Virus record (IMG/VR): IMGVR_UViG_2778261382_000004
Span: 1 to 12,467 of that record
Origin: a virus
Taxonomy: Duplodnaviria > Heunggongvirae > Uroviricota > Caudoviricetes
DNA: 12,467 nucleotides
Reading direction: 5' to 3' (one strand)
Shown: positions 301 to 11,417 of the stretch, piece after piece
Numbering within the stretch: the first letter of the stretch is position 1
How the letters are laid out: each line of letters opens with the position of its first letter
The notes under the pieces: generated by a model
Told to the model about the DNA's origin: nothing
The model's database searches: none
What the model saw: only the letters and a program-made list of their open reading frames with translations
Program-made: the position numbers and the translations under genes

Positions 301-801
301 TCACTCATCATCTTCTGTTTCGTACTCCACATCAGAAAGCCTGACCTCAAGCTCCAAGGACGTCGTGAAGCCGCTATTATTCAGAAAATGTGTCACCTTA
401 GTGATTGTCCAGTCCTGCTCGTCTATGACGCGCTTAAAGCCTGACACTTTAACCGGTGTTTCCGTGTAAATATCTGCCCGACCGGTAGCCAGGCTGATGG
501 AGAACTCCGCCACACCCCGTTGCAGTTTATCCCACTTCGCCTGAGCGGCGCGCATGGCCTGCGCTTTCGTGGCATATACCGTGGTCAGGGCAAAAACGTT
601 GTCAGCCTCACCGGCCATGTATTCACCTTCGCGCGCTTCCGGTACTTTTGGCGCTTTCTTCTGCGTGACCGGTTTCGCTTTCGGGTGCTCCAGTGCGCGC
701 AGGTGTTTTTCTTTCTTTTTGCGTTTCAGTTTTACCTTCTGCTTTTGCGGCTTCGGGTCTTTGGTGTGTATCCTGAAATCCCGCCAGATTGGCGCGACGT
801 T
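301..801 (-). pseudogene. D: Tail gene D, C-terminal fragment only (N-terminal roughly 60 percent missing)
   Basis: Reading frame open from 801 down to the stop at 301-303, ending ...FKRVIDEQDWTITKVTHFLNNSGFTTSLELEVRLSDVEYETEDDE. It sits immediately upstream of ogr in the same orientation, as D does in P2. The frame is closed by a stop at 802-804 and there is no plausible start or upstream D sequence. Identification as gpD is from context plus sequence memory. Confidence 0.55.
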
Positions 802-2053
802 TTATTTTTCCCGCGAGGCGCTGCTGCGCGCCCTGAAAACCGGTCATAACCAGATTTTTCTGTCGGCCAGTAAAACGCAGGCGTATGTGTTCCGCGAATA
901 CATCATCGCCTTTGCCCGTCTGGTTGACGTTGACCTGACCGGTGACCCGATTGTCCTGGGCAATAACGGCGCAAAACTGATTTTTCTCGGCACCAACTCC
1001 AACACCGCACAGAGCCATAACGGCGACCTGTACGTCGACGAGATTTTCTGGATCCCGAATTTTCAGGTACTGCGTAAGGTGGCATCAGGTATGGCCTCAC
1101 AGAGTCACCTGCGCTCGACCTATTTCTCCACCCCGTCCACGCTGGCGCACGACGCCTACCCGTTCTGGTCGGGTGAACTGTTCAACCGGGGACGCGCCAG
1201 CGCCGCCGAACGTGTGGAAATCGACGTCAGTCATAACGCCCTTGCCAGCGGGCTTCTCTGTGCGGACGGCCAGTGGCGGCAGATTGTCACCATTGAGGAC
1301 GCCCTGAAAGGCGGCTGCACACTGTTCGACATTGAGCAGCTCAAACGTGAAAACAGCGCCGACGATTTTAAAAACCTGTTCATGTGTGAATTTGTTGACG
1401 ACAAGGCGTCGGTGTTCCCGTTCGAGGAGCTGCAACGCTGCATGGTCGACACGCTGGAAGAATGGGAAGACTATGCGCCGTTTGCCGCCAATCCGTTCGG
1501 CTCACGTCCGGTATGGATTGGTTACGACCCGTCACACCGTGGCGACAGCGCCGGATGCGTGGTGCTGGCACCGCCGGTGGTGGCCGGTGGCAAATTCAGA
1601 ATACTTGAGCGTCACCAGTGGAAAGGCATGGACTTTGCCACCCAGGCGGAATCCATCCGCAAACTCACCGAAAAATACAACGTCGAATACATCGGCATTG
1701 ATGCCACCGGCCTTGGTGTCGGCGTGTTCCAGCTCGTGCGCTCGTTCTATCCTGCCGCGCGCGATATCCGCTACACGCCGGAAATGAAAACCGCAATGGT
1801 GCTCAAGGCCAAAGACGTTATCCGCCGTGGCTGTCTGGAATATGACGTCAGCGCCACCGACATCACCAGCTCGTTTATGGCTATCCGCAAGACCATGACC
1901 AGCAGCGGACGCAGCGCCACCTATGAGGCCAGTCGCAGCGAGGAAGCCAGCCACGCCGACCTCGCCTGGGCGACCATGCACGCCCTGTTAAATGAGCCAC
2001 TCACCGCCGGTATCAGCACCCCGCTGACATCCACCATTCTGGAGTTTTACTGA
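779..2053 (+). pseudogene. P: Terminase large (ATPase/nuclease) subunit gpP, N-terminally truncated
   Basis: Protein-like sequence begins near codon 76 of ORF 554..2053 with a Walker-A-like SRQIGATFYFSREALL, followed by LYVDEIFWIP and a long terminase-like C-terminal part. The first 75 codons of the ORF (554-778) are Cys/Phe-rich nonsense that is antisense to the D fragment. The stop overlaps the Q start (TGATG at 2051-2055), as in a P-Q operon. Confidence 0.65.
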
Positions 2054-3087
2054 TGAGCAAGAAAGAAGGGAAAACACCGCAGCCAGCGGCAAAAACAATC
2101 ACCGCCAGCGCCCCGAAAATGGAAGCATTCACCTTTGGCGAGCCGGTGCCGGTACTCGACCGCCGTGACATTCTGGATTACGTCGAATGCATCAGTAACG
2201 GCAGATGGTATGAGCCGCCGGTCAGCTTTACCGGTCTGGCAAAAAGCCTGCGTGCTGCCGTGCATCACAGCTCACCGATTTACGTCAAACGCAATATTCT
2301 GGCCTCAACATTTATCCCGCATCCGTGGCTTTCGCAACAGGATTTCAGCCGCTTTGTGCTGGATTTTCTGGTGTTCGGTAATGCGTTTCTGGAAAAGCGT
2401 TACAGCACCACCGGTAAGGTCATCAGACTGGAAACCTCACCGGCAAAATATACCCGCCGTGGTGTGGAAGAGGATGTTTACTGGTGGGTGCCGTCCTTCA
2501 ACGAGCCGACACCTTTCACGCCCGGTTCCGTGTTTCACCTGCTGGAGCCGGATATTAATCAGGAGCTGTACGGCCTGCCGGAATATCTCAGCGCCCTTAA
2601 CTCTGCCTGGCTGAATGAGTCGGCCACGCTGTTCCGCCGCAAGTATTACGAAAACGGCGCACATGCCGGATACATCATGTACGTTACCGATGCCGTGCAG
2701 GATCGCAACGATATCGAAATGCTTCGCGAAAACATGGTGAAGTCGAAAGGCCGCAACAACTTTAAAAACCTGTTTCTCTATGCCCCGCAGGGGAAAGCCG
2801 ACGGCATTAAAATTATCCCGCTCAGTGAAGTGGCGACGAAGGACGATTTTTTTAATATCAAAAAAGCCAGCGCCGCTGACCTGCTGGACGCACACCGCAT
2901 CCCCTTTCAGTTGATGGGTGGCAAGCCGGAGAACGTCGGGTCACTGGGCGATATTGAGAAAGTGGCAAAGGTCTTTGTCCGCAATGAGCTAATCCCGTTA
3001 CAGGACAGGATTCGGGAAATAAACGGCTGGCTCGGCCAGGAGGTCATCCGCTTTAAAAACTACTCACTGGACACTGACAACGGCTGA
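2053..3087 (+). CDS. Q: Portal protein gpQ
   Basis: 344-aa ORF, the same length as P2 gpQ, directly downstream of and overlapping the terminase gene, followed by a terminator and the cos site. The sequence MSKKEGKTPQPAAKT...GKPENVGSLGDIEKVAKVFVRNELIPLQDRIREINGWLGQ is recognised as P2-type portal. Confidence 0.85.
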   Translation: MSKKEGKTPQPAAKTITASAPKMEAFTFGEPVPVLDRRDILDYVECISNGRWYEPPVSFTGLAKSLRAAVHHSSPIYVKRNILASTFIPHPWLSQQDFSRFVLDFLVFGNAFLEKRYSTTGKVIRLETSPAKYTRRGVEEDVYWWVPSFNEPTPFTPGSVFHLLEPDINQELYGLPEYLSALNSAWLNESATLFRRKYYENGAHAGYIMYVTDAVQDRNDIEMLRENMVKSKGRNNFKNLFLYAPQGKADGIKIIPLSEVATKDDFFNIKKASAADLLDAHRIPFQLMGGKPENVGSLGDIEKVAKVFVRNELIPLQDRIREINGWLGQEVIRFKNYSLDTDNG

Positions 3088-3092
3088 ACATC

Positions 3093-3114
3093 GCCGCCTG
3101 CGGGCGGCTTTTTT
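3093..3114 (+). terminator. Rho-independent terminator of the P-Q operon
   Basis: Perfect GC stem GCCGCC (3093-3098) / GGCGGC (3103-3108) with loop TGCG, followed by TTTTTT (3109-3114), 6 nt after the Q stop codon. Confidence 0.7.
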
Positions 3115-3256
3115 ACACCCCGTCATCACGCCCTCACACGCTCACCACCGCACAAAACAGCCCGCAGACACACCAACGCCCCGGCGCACAATCTAAACGC
3201 CATTACGACGCGCTGAGACGCTGAAAAAATAAAATCAGCACCACCGCCAGCGCGCA

Positions 3257-3275
3257 GTGCTTTCCCCGCCTCGCC
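3257..3275. other. cos site (19-nt cohesive-end sequence of P2/186/P4 type)
   Basis: gtgctttccccgcctcgcc at 3257-3275 is the reverse complement of GGCGAGGCGGGGAAAGCAC, which I recall as the P2-family 19-nt cohesive end. It lies about 170 bp beyond the Q stop, where cos is expected. Confidence 0.65.
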
Positions 3276-3311
3276 CGCCCGCTTCATGGGGCGGTTTTAA
3301 TGCAGTTGCAC

Positions 3312-3333
3312 AGCCATGTCAAAGCCATGTCAA
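3312..3333. repeat. Perfect tandem duplication of an 11-bp unit AGCCATGTCAA next to cos
   Basis: AGCCATGTCAA at 3312-3322 is repeated exactly at 3323-3333, 37 bp from the cos 19-mer. Confidence 0.8.
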
Positions 3334-3518
3334 CACTAGCAGTATGTAAAAAGAGCAGATATAAGAAACAAATGCAGTTTCATGCAAAAAGCGACACACA
3401 TCATGTCATGAAACAAAGCCGCTAATGAACACTTGCTTTGGTTATCTTAAGGTTTTATCTTCAGCCTAACCTATTGATTGCATGAAACTAAAATGAACTC
3501 TCAGCAAGGAACGACTAT

Positions 3519-5477
3519 ATGTCAGATTTCGAAATTAAAATTGATTTGAATGTGCTAAATCACCTAGGGATGAGTCTCTATTCCAATACTCCCGCGGTAC
3601 TAACTGAGATTATATCAAATGCATGGGATGCAGATGCTCAAAATGTAGAAATTACACTTGATGTTGAGAAAGGAGAGGTCATCATTAAAGATGATGGTCA
3701 TGGCATGTCTAAAGATGACATTATTAATAAGTTCCTAAAAGTCGGTTATGCTCGCAGGGAACATGGAAGAGCCAAAAGCGATCATCTAAAACGTCAAGTT
3801 ATGGGCAGAAAAGGTATTGGTAAGCTTGCCATGTTTTCACTTGCCAATAAAATCCAAGTTTATTCGTACAAAAAGGGGGAACAGCCTCAGGCCTTTGAGG
3901 TAGATGTCAAAGATTTACAGCAAAGTATCAAAGAATCAAAAAACTATATTGCTGACTCCCTTGAAATACCCGAAAATCTTGCTTACGGCACTACAATTAA
4001 ATTATTTGAACTAAAAAAAGCCATTGATAGGACTCAAACTTACCTCAGAAAGCGAATAGCTCGTCGATTTAGCATTATTGGCCCCAACCATAACTTTACA
4101 GTTAAAATTAATGGGACCGATATTACACCGGCAGATAGAGATTTCCTTTCAGATCTCGAGTTCATTTGGGAATTTGGCGAATCCGACCCTGAAAGGATAA
4201 AATCCTGCACAAACATCACACAAAAAAACATATTACCAAATACTATTACCTTTGAAGGAAAAGATGTAAAAGTTAGTGGGTACATTGGCAGTGTAGTTAA
4301 GCCATCACAGTTAAAGAAAGACCCTGAAATATCTAACAACAGCATTACTGTAATCTCTCACGGACGTGTTTTTGAGGAGGACATATTATTAGAATTTGGA
4401 AGTGCTAAAGTATTCACCAATTATCTGGTCGGTGAAATAGTCGCCGATTTTCTAGATGATAACGAAAAGCCTGATATGGCAACATCTTCTCGTCAAAAAC
4501 TACAACAGAATGATCCAAGATACCCTGTACTTAAAGGTTTTCTGGAAAGAACGCTACAACTAATCGATAAAGATTGGGATAAATGGAGACGCGAAAAAGG
4601 AGTAAATGAAGTTAAAAGCAATACTCCAATAGTAAGTGAATGGCTGAATTCTCTCAAAAAACATGAGAGAGAAAGTGCCGAAAAGTTAATTGGACGAGTA
4701 AACACATTCCGTTTTTCTGGTAATGAGGAAGAACAAAAAGCAGCAAGAAAAACCGTATTAAAAAATACGGTATTAGCCTTTGAAAGACTTAGAATTCAAG
4801 ACAACCTTGATGCATTAGATAAAATAAGCAACCTTCAATCAGAAAATTTTAAAGATGTATTTGCATCTGTCAATGACATTGAAGCAAGCATGTTTTATGA
4901 AATTACTTCGCAACGCCTTAAAGTAATTGAAAAATTCCAAAAAATAACTGATGAAAATCAGCTTGAAAGAGCTGTACAAATGTATTTATATGATCATTTA
5001 TGGTTATTGGATCCTTCATGGGAAAGAGTCACAGGCACATCTGTTATGGAGCAAACATTGACCAAGGAACTAAAACAGATAAACCCTGATGCTGCTAGCG
5101 GTGCTCGTATTGATATCGCTTTCAAAACCGTTTCTGGCAAGCATGTAATTATTGAGATGAAACGACCTAAAGTGCACCCAGATATAATGAACCTAGTCGC
5201 ACAAGGTAATAAATATGTACAGGCAACGACACAATGGTTCTCCAATAACCCTAAAAATTGCCCAGGTGGAAATATACCGCATATAGAAGTAATATTCCTG
5301 GTTGGCTCTGGATATTTACAAGAGAACCAACACTTTATAAATATGCAATTACTTTCTATCAATGGAAAAATATTGACATATAATGACCTAATCGTGCAAT
5401 CAAAACAAGCCTATGCTGAATATCAAGACAAAAAGAATGATGCAGCTAGAATTATGAAAATAGTTGAGGGAATCTAA
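3519..5477 (+). CDS. GHKL (Bergerat-fold, HATPase_c_3-like) ATPase with a C-terminal PD-(D/E)xK-like nuclease motif; candidate restriction/effector component
   Basis: N-terminal GHKL motifs: E..SNAWDA (nt 3606-3632), DDGHGM (nt 3690-3704), GRKGIGKLA (nt 3804-3830). C-terminal ...GARIDIAFKTVSGKHVIIEMKRPK... has D (nt 5112-5114) then E-x-K (nt 5154-5162) with hydrophobic flanks, as in PD-(D/E)xK nucleases. AAGGA lies 8 nt upstream of the ATG. The gene is AT-rich relative to the prophage backbone. Confidence 0.7.
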   Translation: MSDFEIKIDLNVLNHLGMSLYSNTPAVLTEIISNAWDADAQNVEITLDVEKGEVIIKDDGHGMSKDDIINKFLKVGYARREHGRAKSDHLKRQVMGRKGIGKLAMFSLANKIQVYSYKKGEQPQAFEVDVKDLQQSIKESKNYIADSLEIPENLAYGTTIKLFELKKAIDRTQTYLRKRIARRFSIIGPNHNFTVKINGTDITPADRDFLSDLEFIWEFGESDPERIKSCTNITQKNILPNTITFEGKDVKVSGYIGSVVKPSQLKKDPEISNNSITVISHGRVFEEDILLEFGSAKVFTNYLVGEIVADFLDDNEKPDMATSSRQKLQQNDPRYPVLKGFLERTLQLIDKDWDKWRREKGVNEVKSNTPIVSEWLNSLKKHERESAEKLIGRVNTFRFSGNEEEQKAARKTVLKNTVLAFERLRIQDNLDALDKISNLQSENFKDVFASVNDIEASMFYEITSQRLKVIEKFQKITDENQLERAVQMYLYDHLWLLDPSWERVTGTSVMEQTLTKELKQINPDAASGARIDIAFKTVSGKHVIIEMKRPKVHPDIMNLVAQGNKYVQATTQWFSNNPKNCPGGNIPHIEVIFLVGSGYLQENQHFINMQLLSINGKILTYNDLIVQSKQAYAEYQDKKNDAARIMKIVEGI

Positions 5478-5482
5478 TTATA

Positions 5483-5506
5483 CCCCCCTGTTTTTTGACA
5501 GGGGGG
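5483..5506. terminator. GC-rich hairpin between convergent genes, probable bidirectional terminator
   Basis: CCCCCCTGT (5483-5491) / ACAGGGGGG (5498-5506) form a perfect 9-bp stem with loop TTTTTG, inside the 41-bp gap between the two convergent stop codons (5475-5477 and 5519-5521). There is no clean U-tract, so efficiency is uncertain. Confidence 0.45.
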
Positions 5507-5518
5507 ATGACATAAGTT

Positions 5519-6568
5519 TTAAATATTCATTTCTGACAAATGTTTTAAAATAGTTTCACCTACGACCTCACCAAGCCTAACAGGAACAGCATTACCTATT
5601 AAACGCGCAACTGTTCTCATTTCAATTTTTACATCATCAGGCCAAAACTCATACTTTTCTGGGAATGACTGTAATAGCGCAGCCTCTCTTAAACTTAATG
5701 CTCTATTTTGGACAGGGTGCCCAAAGCGTCCATTCCCATATCCAATACATTGAGTTGTAATTGTCGGTCCAAGTTTATCCCAACACATTCTCCCATATAC
5801 AGCAGTATATGTAGAACCACTTTCTTTTGTATGACATTTTGCTCTTAGCTCTTCTGGCCAATCACGCCATGTTCCACCAGGTTTTGATGCCATTATTCTT
5901 TTTATATTAATATCAGATAATGATGCAGAGCGATGTAGTTTATCTCCAGCGTGAACAGCACCGGCACTAATTTCAGGAAGATTACCGATTATATCTCGCA
6001 CCGTTTTATAATCATTCTTCTCATGAGTTGGTGGAATTATTTCTATTTCTCCATATTTTGATGCCAATAACACTAATCTTGAACGACTTTGTGCCATTCC
6101 ATAGTCTGGACAAAACACCACCCCATACCAAACAAAATAGCCATCATTTTTAAGAGACTTAATGAAGTCCTTAAAAACCTTATGATTCACCACTCGGGGA
6201 ACGTTTTCCATTGTAATAATATCTGGCTTTGCAAATTTAATTTGCTTAGCAAAGCTATAAAGCAAAGACCATCTTTTATCTTTTGAACGTACTACCCCTA
6301 ATTTAGCACTATTGGTATAGCTTGAAAAAGGTTGGCATGGGGCACAACCAGCCAAAACTCGAACCTTCGCTCCTTCGAAATATTTAACTAATTCGCCGTC
6401 CTCAATGTCTGTAACACTTTTCTGGACAAAGAGTGATTTATTATTTGTCTCATAGGCAAATCGACAGGCTGCATCTATATCATAACCTGCAACTACATTA
6501 AGCCCCGACTTCTGAAGACCGTGAGTCAAGCCACCCGCGCCACAGAATAAATCAACAACCTTAATCAA
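5519..6568 (-). CDS. DNA (cytosine-5)-methyltransferase
   Basis: Canonical m5C MTase motifs in order: I DLFCGAGG, IV GCAPCQPFS (catalytic Cys codon at 6335-6337), VI ENV, VIII QSRSRL, IX/X RFGHP...RALSLREAALLQSFP...IGNAVP. Start chosen at TTG 6566-6568, preceded by a strong SD AGAAGGAGG (6575-6583) with a 6-nt spacer. The tabulated ORF begins further upstream at TTG 6668-6670 without an SD. Confidence 0.85.
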   Translation of the reverse strand: MIKVVDLFCGAGGLTHGLQKSGLNVVAGYDIDAACRFAYETNNKSLFVQKSVTDIEDGELVKYFEGAKVRVLAGCAPCQPFSSYTNSAKLGVVRSKDKRWSLLYSFAKQIKFAKPDIITMENVPRVVNHKVFKDFIKSLKNDGYFVWYGVVFCPDYGMAQSRSRLVLLASKYGEIEIIPPTHEKNDYKTVRDIIGNLPEISAGAVHAGDKLHRSASLSDINIKRIMASKPGGTWRDWPEELRAKCHTKESGSTYTAVYGRMCWDKLGPTITTQCIGYGNGRFGHPVQNRALSLREAALLQSFPEKYEFWPDDVKIEMRTVARLIGNAVPVRLGEVVGETILKHLSEMNI

Positions 6569-6624
6569 GATAAACCTCCTTCTAATGCTGTGGGGATTGT
6601 AGCATTGTTCTTTCTCATCATCGA

Positions 6625-6655
6625 TGTTTACTTGATGCTTGATTTGTGAATACAA
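6625..6655. promoter_or_regulatory. 11-bp inverted repeat in the MTase leader; candidate operator
   Basis: ATGCTTGATTT (6625-6635) and AAATCAAGCAT (6645-6655) with a 9-bp spacer. It lies between a TTGACA hexamer (minus strand, 6670-6665) and the MTase SD. No U-tract follows, so it is unlikely to be an intrinsic terminator for A. Confidence 0.4.
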
Positions 6656-6679
6656 AATCAAGCATGTCAATCATTATTG

Positions 6680-8953
6680 TTAGTTTGTTTCAAATCCCGC
6701 CCAACCATCAGAAATCGGATATGAAAACGTTTTCCCATCATAATTTACGGTCGCGCCACGCGCCAGCGCCTCAAGCTCCCATCGCTGCGGCCTGATACCG
6801 TTCTGAGCAAGGTCAACGCGGATACGGGTAATTTGCATTCGTTCCGACCGGGCCAGTCTGGCCGATGGTGCAATTTCATGTGGTTTTAACGAGCTTCCGT
6901 TTCTTTGCTGACGATTTGGCGTTCTCCGACCGTGTTTTAATGCACCTCTGAGCGCCCTCACGACCTCCGGGTCACTCCATTCGATAACACTGTCATCAAC
7001 CAGATTAAGCACTGCTGCGGCGTGCTCAGAAGGTGTGGGAGCCGGTAACGAAGTATCACCACCGGTGAGTTTTCCACAGTTATTGACAGGACTCCGAGGC
7101 GCGGCGATGCCGCTTTTTAAAGTCAAAGGCTCAACGACCGGCACTTTCGGAACAATGCGCCAGTCCGTCGTTCTGGTGATATGAATATGACGCGCGCCGA
7201 GATGCGGCGCGTAAATGCCGACCACTCTCTCGACTTCTTCCTCGTACTCGTTAACGTCATCCGACGGGCTACGGGCAACCCTGACAGTCTGGCAATCGCG
7301 CGGGACATTTGCCCCACCCTGCGCGCTGATATACAGCGCAAAATCACCACTGTCTGCGGCGGCGCGTGCAGCCTCGACGCGCTCGTCAAACTCATCAGCA
7401 ATGCTGACGCCGCGAGGCAATTTGCGTAGTTCACGGTAAGCCCCCATTGTCGGCAGGCCAACCGTTTTAAATTGCGGAATGCGCCACGTTGACGCCCATG
7501 CGGTAACAGCCGCGGCAGTATCTTTCAGCGGTCTGCCGGTATCGTTATCGAGCTGCCCATCCAGTGCATAGCCGTCGATATTTTTTGAGATGTATTTCGC
7601 GATATACCCCGCAGCACCGCCCCGGTTAAGGTGTTTTTCCTGAAAACGGTTTCGCGCGGCTCCTCTTTCGTCGCCATCCTCTTTGAGCGCATAGCGACGC
7701 ATGATTTCGATAATCTGGTTACGCTGGCGTGGATGACAAAAAAGCATCATATGCCAGTGCGGCGTTCCGTCGTGGTGTGGCTCGACGACACGCAAACCGT
7801 AGACCTGTAAATCATTATCCTTGAATGCCGTGCGCATCAGACTCCAGATACGGCAGAGATAACGCTGCGCATCCTTTGGATTAAATGCCTCATCGTTCCA
7901 GCCGTGATTAAGCTGAACGGTTTTACTTTCGCCTTTTCCGACCTGACGTGTCGGGTGATACTTTGACGGCGCGGTCAGCGTGATAAACATCCCCAAATCA
8001 CCCTCTGCGGCGGCGTAACGCTCAATACCGGCAATGGTGTTCATCAGCTCCATCCGGCGAATTTCTGGATTAGAAATACTGCCCATCACCTTACTGATAA
8101 GGTCGATGCGCTCGCCGGTTTCCCTGTTTTCAAGGTCACACGATTTAAGAAATTCCAGATTTGCCTGGCGGCGCGCACGCACATCACGAATGGCATGTTT
8201 ACTGGCATAAGGAGAACGGTCTTTATTGACCTCCCCGACAGCAATCAGTAACGCCTCATGCCAGCGCATACGCTGGCCTTTAAGCTGACTAATCCACCAC
8301 TCATCGTTAAACAGACGGGCAATGGCAGAATATGCCTGCCTCGTGGTCATCTGTCCTTTACTGTATTTTTTCCAGTAGAGCGGGGAAATATTGAAAGCAC
8401 GTGCAGCGCCAGCAACATGACCATACAGGTGAGCCTGCGCCTCATCCGTAAACAGCGATTCTTTTTCACCATGCGCATCAACCCATGCATCGCAGAGTTC
8501 CTCATACATCATGAAAAGCTGCGATGAGATACGGGCGGCAAACTTTTTCAGCTCCTTGTCATTCATTCCAGGCAGGCGCGCATAGTGGTCACGCTCTGCC
8601 AGAAACAGCAACGACGCGTCGGTGTTCATTTCATGGCGCTGATTCACGCGCTCAATGCGCGGCCATAAACGACGCTGAAAAGTGGATGTGAGGAAATAAA
8701 ACCCGTGCACCGGGCTTTTATTGCGCCGGATGTAGTCATAGCGTGAAGTAAACAGCGAACGCAAAAAGTAAGGCAGGCGGTTAATCGTGGATAAAACACC
8801 TTGCACCTGACGCATCTCGTCACGTGTAAGGGGTCTTTCGCGCCCGACGGCCTCGCGTGGCGCGTTCCATGCATAAGCACCGGTAAACGTCTTACCGGTG
8901 CCTGCGGCAAATGCTGACGGAGGGACAAAACGCCCGGAGGCTTTAACGTCCAT
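6680..8953 (-). CDS. A: Replication initiation protein gpA (rolling-circle nicking enzyme)
   Basis: Large ORF of P2 gpA size and position at the end of the early operon. It contains an HUH-like metal-binding motif HWHMMLF and, about 50 residues downstream, an active-site-like YIAKYISK. Start set at the ATG at 8951-8953 (MDVKASGRF...); the tabulated ORF begins at an upstream TTG at 8995. Confidence 0.85.
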   Translation of the reverse strand: MDVKASGRFVPPSAFAAGTGKTFTGAYAWNAPREAVGRERPLTRDEMRQVQGVLSTINRLPYFLRSLFTSRYDYIRRNKSPVHGFYFLTSTFQRRLWPRIERVNQRHEMNTDASLLFLAERDHYARLPGMNDKELKKFAARISSQLFMMYEELCDAWVDAHGEKESLFTDEAQAHLYGHVAGAARAFNISPLYWKKYSKGQMTTRQAYSAIARLFNDEWWISQLKGQRMRWHEALLIAVGEVNKDRSPYASKHAIRDVRARRQANLEFLKSCDLENRETGERIDLISKVMGSISNPEIRRMELMNTIAGIERYAAAEGDLGMFITLTAPSKYHPTRQVGKGESKTVQLNHGWNDEAFNPKDAQRYLCRIWSLMRTAFKDNDLQVYGLRVVEPHHDGTPHWHMMLFCHPRQRNQIIEIMRRYALKEDGDERGAARNRFQEKHLNRGGAAGYIAKYISKNIDGYALDGQLDNDTGRPLKDTAAAVTAWASTWRIPQFKTVGLPTMGAYRELRKLPRGVSIADEFDERVEAARAAADSGDFALYISAQGGANVPRDCQTVRVARSPSDDVNEYEEEVERVVGIYAPHLGARHIHITRTTDWRIVPKVPVVEPLTLKSGIAAPRSPVNNCGKLTGGDTSLPAPTPSEHAAAVLNLVDDSVIEWSDPEVVRALRGALKHGRRTPNRQQRNGSSLKPHEIAPSARLARSERMQITRIRVDLAQNGIRPQRWELEALARGATVNYDGKTFSYPISDGWAGFETN

Positions 8954-11123: not shown

Positions 11124-11417
11124 ATGCAGACATTCGAAAAACTGAAAGCGATTAGGAAAGCAGAAGGCTTAACACAGGCGAAATTCAGCGAAATTAGCGG
11201 GATAGCTCTAGGAACAGTCAAAAATTACGAAAGTGGGCATAAAGACCCTGGTCTCAGCATCGTTATGCGAGTCACAAATACGCCTTTATTTAAAAAATAT
11301 ACGCTCTGGTTAATGACTGGTGATACGTCACCACAAGCTGGTCAGATCGCGCCGGCTCTCGCACACATTGGGCAAAAACCAACAGAATCAGACCACTCCG
11401 AAAAACAGACTGGTTAA
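11124..11417 (+). CDS. C: C immunity repressor (P2 type)
   Basis: 97-aa ORF with an N-terminal HTH-like AEGLTQAKFSEISGIALGTVKNYESG and C-terminal ...KYTLWLMTG...SGQIAPALAH..., resembling the P2 C repressor (99 aa). It is upstream of int on the same strand and divergent from cox. Confidence 0.8.
   Translation: MQTFEKLKAIRKAEGLTQAKFSEISGIALGTVKNYESGHKDPGLSIVMRVTNTPLFKKYTLWLMTGDTSPQAGQIAPALAHIGQKPTESDHSEKQTG

Follow-up and report, generated by a model that had tools for sequence, protein, structure and literature searches.

The 652-aa protein encoded in the window (the whole stretch of 12,467 nt analysed here) forms, with the neighbouring C5 methyltransferase, a conserved restriction-modification (R-M) pair of which it is the R subunit, and its sequence places it in a family of restriction enzymes that already bears a name, BbrUII/HgiDII. 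Four modules make it up: a GHKL domain for ATP binding, a transducer resembling those of MORC and MutL, a helical arm and a PD-(D/E)xK nuclease of the Shedu type. The reading favoured here, with a probability of roughly 0.8, is that the protein is the endonuclease of a two-gene HgiDII/BbrUII-type R-M system that a P2-like E. coli prophage carries in its gpQ-gpA hotspot as cargo against phages. The domain architecture originally predicted for the protein was supported by the analysis. The kind of protein is already known, the gene being annotated in RefSeq and the architecture being in print as paraMORC3 (2008, Iyer, Abhiman and Aravind, PMC2292703) and as Shedu type I-D/VcSduA (2023-2025). The coordinates of the features are given in Table 1.

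Table 1. Features of the restriction-modification cassette and its surroundings, in window coordinates
Feature	Position	Strand	Basis
Restriction endonuclease gene, BbrUII/HgiDII family, RefSeq WP_001279022.1	3519..5477	+	NF050001, PADLOC, RefSeq
GHKL (Bergerat) ATP-binding domain, residues 1-165	3519..4013	+	Motifs I-IV
Alpha/beta middle (transducer/S5-like) domain, residues 166-333	4014..4517	+	DSSP of AF2 model; N+M module alignments; R325 invariant
Helical linker or arm, residues 334-478	4518..4952	+	AF2 model helices 334-475
Predicted PD-(D/E)xK nuclease domain, Shedu/DUF4263 (SduA_C) type, residues 479-652	4953..5474	+	
G+C-rich hairpin CCCCCCTGT / ACAGGGGGG, between convergent genes	5483..5506	.	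Fold energy
C5 cytosine DNA methyltransferase, 349 aa, TTG start after AGGAGG	5519..6568	-	Pfam DNA_methylase, TIGR00675 dcm, RefSeq coordinates
Variable cargo region of P2-like prophage, between gpQ and gpA	3088..6679	.	GC, flanking Pfam families, RefSeq
Portal gpQ	2053-3087		
Replication gene gpA	6680-8953		

The predicted open reading frame was borne out, with an ATG start and the expected 652 codons for amino acids. The protein matched NCBIfam NF050001 ('BbrUII/HgiDII family restriction enzyme'), a curated equivalog HMM with a cutoff of 550 bits, at 751.4 bits (E = 9e-226) and from end to end, residues 4-651 aligning with profile positions 1-658 of 659; it also matched the PADLOC model REase_II PDLC03419 (E = 2e-91), and its RefSeq name is already BbrUII/HgiDII family restriction enzyme. 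A protein identical to it occurs in phage PhiR44_1, where it was deposited as 'ParaMORC3'; no literature on this phage was found. The PHROGs entry for the family still reads 'unknown function', which leaves room to improve phage annotations.

The N-terminal Bergerat ATPase of the original prediction was confirmed by a match to Pfam HATPase_c_3 (E = 2.3e-25) and by the AF2 model. The three GHKL motifs proposed earlier are intact, with IISNAWDADA at residues 31-40 (preceded by E30 and including N34), DDGHGM at 58-63 and GRKGIGKLA at 96-104, and a fourth, G157-T158, absent from the earlier list, is also present. The motif residues are thus E30/N34/D37 (motif I), D58-G60-G62 (II), G96-G99-G101 (III) and G157-T158 (IV), and the protein shows the features of the GHKL superfamily, namely the motifs ExxxNxxD, DxGxG, GxxGxG and GT and a Bergerat fold with a transducer (S5-like) domain after it. 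In structure, the N-terminal 300 residues most resemble MORC3, SMCHD1, MORC2 and MutL; 284-320 residues aligned with the N-terminal and middle (N+M) modules of MORC3, SMCHD1, MORC2, TRAP1 and MutL, and a Foldseek search with the full-length model matched Hsp90 N+M at E ~1e-13. Identity to the corresponding modules of MORC, SMCHD1, MutL and Hsp90 is 11-18%, and the window protein lacks the CW or coiled-coil domains of MORC, the C-terminal endonuclease of MutL and the client-binding domains of Hsp90, having a helical arm and a PD-(D/E)xK domain instead.

The long helical middle of the original prediction was found to hold for residues ~334-478, whereas residues 166-333 form an alpha/beta transducer domain that had been overlooked. 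This domain carries a conserved loop, A321-T-S-S-R325-Q326. In the helical part, the Lys/Glu enrichment ascribed to the middle region is modest, with 11% K (7-10% elsewhere) and 10% E (6-7% elsewhere). The arm is the least conserved region of the protein (mean conservation 0.42 vs 0.47-0.56 elsewhere) and the lowest-confidence part of the AF2 model, with pLDDT 48-68 over residues 440-510.

The C-terminal nuclease had been put forward on a short motif as the weakest element of the architecture, and it is now upheld by the predicted core, by SduA_C matches among relatives and by invariant motifs. A search of the PDB sequences with the full-length protein returned GHKL domains only, and a profile of the C-terminal domain matched nothing real among them, so that structure prediction was needed for the nuclease assignment. 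In Foldseek, the full-length model returned mostly Hsp90 N+M matches and none for the nuclease, and the C-terminal part was therefore modelled on its own. The resulting AF2 model (residues 470-652, pLDDT 82.7) shows the alpha-beta-beta-beta-alpha-beta core that had been named as the structural check. The segment RIDIAFKTVSGKHVIIEMKRPK (residues 530-551) carries D532, E546 and K548, with the 14-residue spacing between D532 and E546 noted originally; the acidic residue, however, does not end a strand as had been described, D532 instead opening strand beta2 according to DSSP of the model. The motifs are E483 (I), D532 (II), E546-x-K548 (III) and Q562 with Y566 (IV), so that the core fold of the PD-(D/E)xK superfamily is accompanied by D...(D/E)xK, flanked by an E upstream and a Q downstream.

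The 652-aa protein itself scored 17.3 bits against Pfam SduA_C (PF14082; E = 0.0056, gathering score 27), and 22 of 26 relatives matched this family at E <= 1; one homologue (P0039, 68% identical) scored 28.1 bits, above the gathering score, over profile positions 3-159. No SduA model of PADLOC or NCBIfam matched the full-length protein at E <= 0.01. Identity of the C-terminal domain to the nuclease domains of NucS/EndoMS and SduA is 15-22%, and their N-terminal partners differ. Judged from profile matches and the model, the C-terminal domain of this R.HgiDII-family protein is a predicted PD-(D/E)xK domain of the Shedu type. R.HgiDII has been placed among the Type IIP enzymes, with a GHKL domain at its N-terminus and a C-terminal domain described in 2008 as 'unassigned to any known fold' (PMC2441816).

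Conservation was assessed in 87 full-length relatives with a median identity of 37%, down to 33%. D58, G60, G62, G96, G99, G101, G157, T158, R325, E483, D532, E546, K548 and Q562 are invariant in all 87, and E30, N34 and D37 are each kept in 86; the predicted ATPase and nuclease active sites are both strictly conserved. Along with the profile scores, this invariance puts the motifs well outside what chance would produce.

The gene downstream encodes a C5 methyltransferase, matching Pfam DNA_methylase (E = 1.3e-55) and TIGR00675 dcm, and is convergent with the endonuclease gene. A longer TTG-initiated frame of 383 aa (5519-6670) was rejected, the RefSeq start at 6568 being preferred on account of its ribosome-binding site and a product length matching that of homologues. 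The hairpin between the two genes has fold energies of -21.6 kcal/mol (+ strand, z = -4.6) and -18.4 kcal/mol (- strand, z = -4.2), with none of 200 shuffled sequences folding as well, and is probably a bidirectional terminator. A consensus scan of the cassette for promoters and terminators found promoter-like sites no commoner than in shuffled sequences.

An orthologous methyltransferase (45-58% identity) was found within 4 kb of the endonuclease gene in 66 of 80 GTDB loci from Bacteria and Archaea of diverse phyla, and 59 of these 66 have it upstream in the same orientation, mostly at 5-90 bp (two at >2 kb), an arrangement suggestive of an M-then-R operon. Of the 76 loci that could be assessed, about 10 have no orthologous methyltransferase. 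A C5 methyltransferase also adjoins the endonuclease in all five contigs inspected, which comprise P2-like prophages of Shewanella, Gallibacterium and Proteus, an Alcanivorax chromosome and a metagenome-assembled genome. Vsr genes occur close by in several loci. The window protein shares with R.HgiDII and R.BbrUII the end-to-end NF050001 match, the N-terminal GHKL domain and the m5C methyltransferase partner; the window copy comes from an E. coli prophage and is known from its sequence, and its R and M genes are convergent, whereas in most relatives M lies upstream of R on the same strand. Both the pairing with the methyltransferase and the existing family name had been overlooked in the original prediction.

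M.HgiDII is an m5C methyltransferase for GTCGAC (PMC5867850), and one methyltransferase homologue at 58% identity was named 'HgiDII' by its source. The recognition site of the window pair is probably GTCGAC, as taken from the family name only; the count of this site in the window (2 observed vs 2.0 expected) is uninformative.

The R-M pair occupies the defence hotspot between gpQ and gpA in a P2-like E. coli prophage, a site already described in such prophages (PMC9122126). The low-GC part of the cargo, from ~3500 to 6670, has a GC content of 0.32-0.39 against ~0.53 in the flanks. Of 5426 complete E. coli genomes, 30 carry the cassette, and the flanks match in 2157. In P2 the same slot beside cos holds variable anti-phage cargo, the old/tin locus (PMC9122126), where the window prophage carries the R-M pair.

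The strongest rival explanation, which we nevertheless regard as unlikely, is that the gene encodes a stand-alone Shedu type I-D/paraMORC3 nuclease like VcSduA, its GHKL domain sensing an infection cue and the methyltransferase being either an orphan Dcm with no relation to it or a cargo gene in its own right. VcSduA (PMC12137116; Gu et al., bioRxiv 10.1101/2023.08.10.552793) has the same layout of GHKL domain, Hsp90/MORC-like middle and DUF4263-type nuclease and works as a single gene, the likeness being one of architecture only. The paraMORC3 proteins likewise share, by architecture, the GHKL domain, the S5/transducer and a C-terminal RE-fold domain with E-D-ExK, and their nuclease-bearing genes mostly stand alone without conserved neighbours (Iyer et al., PMC2292703). 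The Shedu-like nuclease domain, the 'ParaMORC3' name given to the identical phage protein and the relatives with no orthologous methyltransferase nearby also speak for this explanation. However, the BbrUII/HgiDII genes show a close linkage with a C5 methyltransferase, in the loci enumerated above, and the pair travels jointly between unrelated contexts; VcSduA is a single gene without a methyltransferase, and a Shedu system is defined by having no modification partner, while the window protein has a conserved adjacent one. Further, NCBIfam and PADLOC group the protein with REBASE-derived Type II enzymes rather than under their SduA models.

A modification-dependent (Type IV-like) nuclease directed against foreign methylated or hypermodified DNA, with the adjacent methyltransferase serving another purpose, appears considerably less probable. 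GHKL/MORC modules do occur in many restriction contexts, and the DNA that is cut might carry methylation, but a conserved tight linkage of such an enzyme to an m5C methyltransferase would endanger its own host, the named members of the family are classed as ordinary Type II, and no SRA, EVE or PUA reader domain was detected in the Pfam scans or the model; this role was therefore rejected. Least credible of all, and likewise rejected, is an ATPase akin to MutL or MORC that acts in DNA repair or chromatin compaction and whose nuclease fold is degenerate and non-catalytic. The structural neighbours of the N-terminal 300 residues would point to such a role, but the whole E-D-ExK-Q motif set is invariant across the family and the gene lies beside a methyltransferase in a low-GC prophage defence hotspot and is too rare among E. 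coli genomes to fit a housekeeping role.

For the favoured R-M system, the following mechanism may be proposed. The C5 methyltransferase would mark the host copies of a specific site, and the endonuclease would cut unmethylated copies in incoming DNA. Two endonuclease subunits would dimerise through their ATP-bound GHKL domains, in the manner of MutL, MORC and Hsp90, and the helical arms of the dimer would close around DNA; R325 in the transducer loop may sense the gamma-phosphate, and ATP binding and hydrolysis would license both nuclease domains for a double-strand cut, with E483/D532/E546/K548 carrying out metal-dependent hydrolysis. We infer ATP binding, hydrolysis and nucleotide-driven dimerisation from the conserved catalytic residues (E30 in 86/87 relatives, R325 in 87/87) and from the E27A mutant of VcSduA, in which this GHKL substitution and the nuclease substitution K557A each abolish defence (PMC12137116). 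A dimeric clamp has been proposed for VcSduA (PMC12137116), and for proteins built in this way the literature (PMC12137116, PMC2292703) envisages cleavage coupled to a dimerisation or clamping that ATP drives; by analogy, the 652-aa protein may be an ATP-gated clamp as well.

Type IIP enzymes like HgiDII were detected with standard assays, which contain no ATP; where that applies, the ATPase may have a regulatory role or may not be needed in vitro.

The GHKL N-terminal domains of Shedu homologues have been suggested in the Shedu literature to sense misfolded proteins. The genomic behaviour of the BbrUII/HgiDII family is that of an ordinary restriction enzyme linked to a methylase. This suggests that the family's GHKL module works on DNA, as a clamp or in a licensing step, and is not a stress sensor, and the R-M pair offers a tractable E. 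coli system for this question. The fusion of GHKL and Shedu modules in a classical Type II restriction enzyme family seems to be under-appreciated, and no connection between HgiDII and Shedu was found in the cited literature. The practical change is small. It can be suggested tentatively, and with rather less confidence than its opposite, that the classical 'Type IIP' HgiDII/BbrUII enzymes are ATP-gated MORC-like clamps with a Shedu nuclease, in which restriction needs ATP hydrolysis by the GHKL domain. If true, HgiDII/BbrUII would constitute a distinct mechanistic subclass of restriction-modification, and the methylase-linked restriction enzymes and the stand-alone GHKL-Shedu proteins such as VcSduA would represent two uses of one machine.

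The open reading frame of the 652-aa protein is present, begins with ATG and comprises 652 codons, and the residues of the three GHKL motifs named in the original prediction were found as stated: E30 and N34 within IISNAWDADA (motif I), D58-x-G60-x-G62 in DDGHGM (motif II) and G96-x-x-G99-x-G101 in GRKGIGKLA (motif III). A fourth GHKL motif, G157-T158, was also identified, and E546-M-K548 lies 14 residues past D532, the spacing claimed for the nuclease motif. Pfam HATPase_c_3 matches residues 26-149 (E = 2.3e-25), and the motif set is confirmed not to be a chance pattern. Residues 4-651 score 751 bits on the NCBIfam equivalog model NF050001 'BbrUII/HgiDII family restriction enzyme' (cutoff 550 bits), while PADLOC reports REase_II PDLC03419 (E = 2e-91), grouped with the REBASE-derived Type II enzymes. 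Its score above the HMM cutoff and its methylase partner place the protein in the BbrUII/HgiDII family. Copies of the 4-kb cassette with 100% identity occur in several complete E. coli genomes, where the RefSeq names are 'BbrUII/HgiDII family restriction enzyme' beside 'DNA cytosine methyltransferase', and 'ParaMORC3' is the deposited name of a 100% identical protein that adjoins a 'Dcm protein' in Escherichia phage PhiR44_1. The corresponding PHROGs v4 family, phrog_6203 (943 bits), is labelled 'unknown function', so that annotation pipelines centred on phages will overlook the restriction enzyme.

Four parts are visible in the full-length AlphaFold2 model, built on 34 homologues (pLDDT 78.9). 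The proposed helical middle holds for residues 334-478, the transducer domain having been overlooked; this segment, described as Lys/Glu-rich, is only modestly enriched in these residues and shows the lowest conservation and the lowest model confidence of the protein. The nuclease domain (479-652), modelled separately as residues 470-652 (pLDDT 82.7), has a helix followed by three strands, a second helix and a final strand. The first helix carries E483, D532 opens beta2, E546 and K548 close beta3, and the helix after that bears Q562 and Y566. The best matches of this model among solved structures are all PD-(D/E)xK nucleases. [quoted passage not shown] The restriction-endonuclease-like core, whose absence would have refuted the original prediction, is present in the model, and the nuclease assignment therefore stands.

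None of the ATPase or nuclease motif residues varies among the 34 homologues (44-82% identity). Among 87 full-length proteins of the same architecture (median identity to the query 37%, range 33-59%), D58, G60, G62, G96, G99, G101, G157, T158 and R325 on the N-terminal side and E483, E511, D532, E546, K548, Q562 and Y566 on the C-terminal side are invariant in 87/87, with E30 and N34 retained in 86. Judged from these alignments, the ATPase and nuclease catalytic centres are both under selection. R325 belongs to the transducer-domain loop ATSSRQ and is a candidate counterpart of the gamma-phosphate-contacting residue of other GHKL ATPases. A search of 1.84 billion representative proteins with the C-terminal-domain profile yielded 662 clusters at E <= 0.001 (169 at E <= 1e-30); nearly all long matches measure 640-690 aa and carry the domain around 470-660, and thus share the architecture of the window protein.

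The restriction-modification (R-M) pair lies in a low-GC stretch (0.32-0.39 vs about 0.53) of a P2-like prophage that has integrated adjacent to cpxP; its portal gene gpQ and its replication gene gpA flank the stretch. This slot is the cos-proximal defence hotspot of Rousset et al. (PMC9122126); in 5426 complete E. coli genomes, the flanks were matched in 2157 and the cassette in 30. Besides the genes tabulated, the window contains portal gpQ, gpA, cox and small early genes. The methyltransferase start was placed at the TTG at 6568, in agreement with the RefSeq start, with homologues of 345-350 aa and with the ribosome-binding site; a 383-aa form (mechanical ORF 5519-6670 (-), TTG at 6670) is disfavoured. 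The intergenic hairpin, a probable bidirectional terminator, is stable on each strand (z about -4.6 and -4.2).

Features of the window and of homologous loci (L-numbers denote loci)
Feature	Sequence	Position	Strand	Remarks
Early and packaging end of P2-like prophage	window; also L006	1-12467
Terminase gpP	window	554-2053		truncated ORF call
Restriction enzyme (R)	window	3519-5477	+	652 aa
Hairpin	window	5483-5506	both	9 bp, G+C-rich, CCCCCCTGT / ACAGGGGGG, exactly between convergent R and M stop codons
C5 cytosine methyltransferase (M)	window	5519-6568	-	349 aa, TTG start, AGGAGG ribosome-binding site; directly downstream of R, convergent
C-type repressor	window	11124-11417
Integrase	window	11457 onward
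Vsr gene or Vsr-like ORF	L007	6035-6436
Vsr gene or Vsr-like ORF	L039	2211-2663
Vsr gene or Vsr-like ORF	L044	3562-3963
M-R pair	Yersinia phage P37 (MT239398.1, L090)	2932-5977
GHKL-nuclease copies	OY282369.1, L032	3983-5959; 7097-9070
GHKL-nuclease copies	OY282369.1, L037	3986-5962; 6791-8452
GHKL-nuclease copies	OY282369.1, L043, L059, L067

In five further contexts (Shewanella, Gallibacterium and Proteus P2-like prophages, an Alcanivorax chromosome and a gammaproteobacterial MAG), a 345-350-aa C5 methyltransferase adjoins the REase homologue, with a Vsr gene between the two in the MAG. A survey of 80 loci from GTDB species representatives, covering many bacterial phyla and some archaea, revealed an orthologous methyltransferase within 4 kb in 66, mostly 45-58% identical to that of the window; M lies upstream of R on the same strand in 59 of these 66, with a gap of mostly 5-90 bp (two >2 kb). 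The other 14 loci, four of which are cut at the relevant end, include at least one divergent C5 methyltransferase, and Vsr-like ORFs lie upstream in two. The gene order varies by lineage (loci L009-L088), the convergent order of the window being common mainly to enterobacterial, Vibrionaceae and Pasteurellaceae prophage copies. Vsr genes or Vsr-like ORFs near the pair were observed in some distant relatives, and none within the E. coli cassette itself. The company of these very short patch repair (Vsr) genes fits m5C methylation, as deamination of m5C creates T:G mismatches. In the Peduovirus Yersinia phage P37, the same P2 gpA-cos hotspot holds a C5 methyltransferase and, after it, a 670-aa homologue that aligns end to end; this homologue, annotated 'hypothetical protein', has 26% identity, falls short of the NF050001 cutoff (329 bits against 550), and in pairwise alignment retains D532 and E546, with K548 of the ExK replaced (E-F-M-R). 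The 3.17-Mb MAG chromosome OY282369.1 ('uncultured Cenarchaeum sp.') carries at least seven GHKL-nuclease gene copies, including two tandem pairs and none beside an orthologous C5 methyltransferase; paralogue expansion, a repeat element or a binning problem could account for this multiplicity.

The conserved methylase linkage is as expected of a restriction-modification pair and argues against a stand-alone Shedu-like protein, a reading that the architectural equivalence to VcSduA, a stand-alone GHKL-Shedu (type I-D) defence protein, might otherwise suggest. The architecture is also that of paraMORC3. The 652-aa protein is predicted to work like a GHKL-Shedu protein; it should not be filed as Shedu proper, since it scores below the Pfam gathering threshold, its full length matches no Shedu model in PADLOC, and it has a methylase partner whereas Shedu is a single-gene system. 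The original interpretation was supported with corrections, having missed the transducer domain, the membership of an R-M pair and the family name already in use. Orlowski and Bujnicki (2008) had to leave the fold of the R.HgiDII C-terminal domain unassigned, a gap that the present analysis fills. As two later Shedu papers mention neither HgiDII, BbrUII nor a cytosine methylase partner, the HgiDII-Shedu link seems under-appreciated. The result brings known facts together and describes no novel type of system.

The Type IIP enzyme R.HgiDII carries a GHKL domain at its N-terminus (PMC2441816), and M.HgiDII is an m5C methyltransferase of the site GTCGAC (PMC5867850); reports on M.BbrUII conflict, describing an N6-adenine methylase or a 5mC methylase homologous to M.HgiDII (PMC5829577 vs PMC5867850). 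In VcSduA, for which a dimeric clamp is predicted, phage defence depends on a glutamate of the GHKL domain (E27A) and on a lysine of the nuclease (K557A) (PMC12137116). According to a proposal by Iyer et al. (PMC2292703), the GHKL+S5 modules of paraMORC proteins power DNA looping or conformational change within restriction systems. Alongside the domain architecture, the conservation of both active sites and the methylase partnership demonstrated here, a working cycle can be proposed in which the methylase would protect host sites, the endonuclease would dimerise via GHKL domains with ATP bound, the DNA would be held by the helical arms together with the transducer domains, and the paired PD-(D/E)xK domains, licensed by ATP binding or hydrolysis, would cut unmethylated sites. 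HgiDII was reportedly discovered with ordinary ATP-free assays; if so, the ATPase may have a regulatory role and not be obligatory. A tentative proposal, with perhaps one chance in three, is that restriction by this classical Type II family depends on ATP hydrolysis by the GHKL domain; if true, the methylase-linked restriction enzymes and the stand-alone GHKL-Shedu proteins would be one machine.
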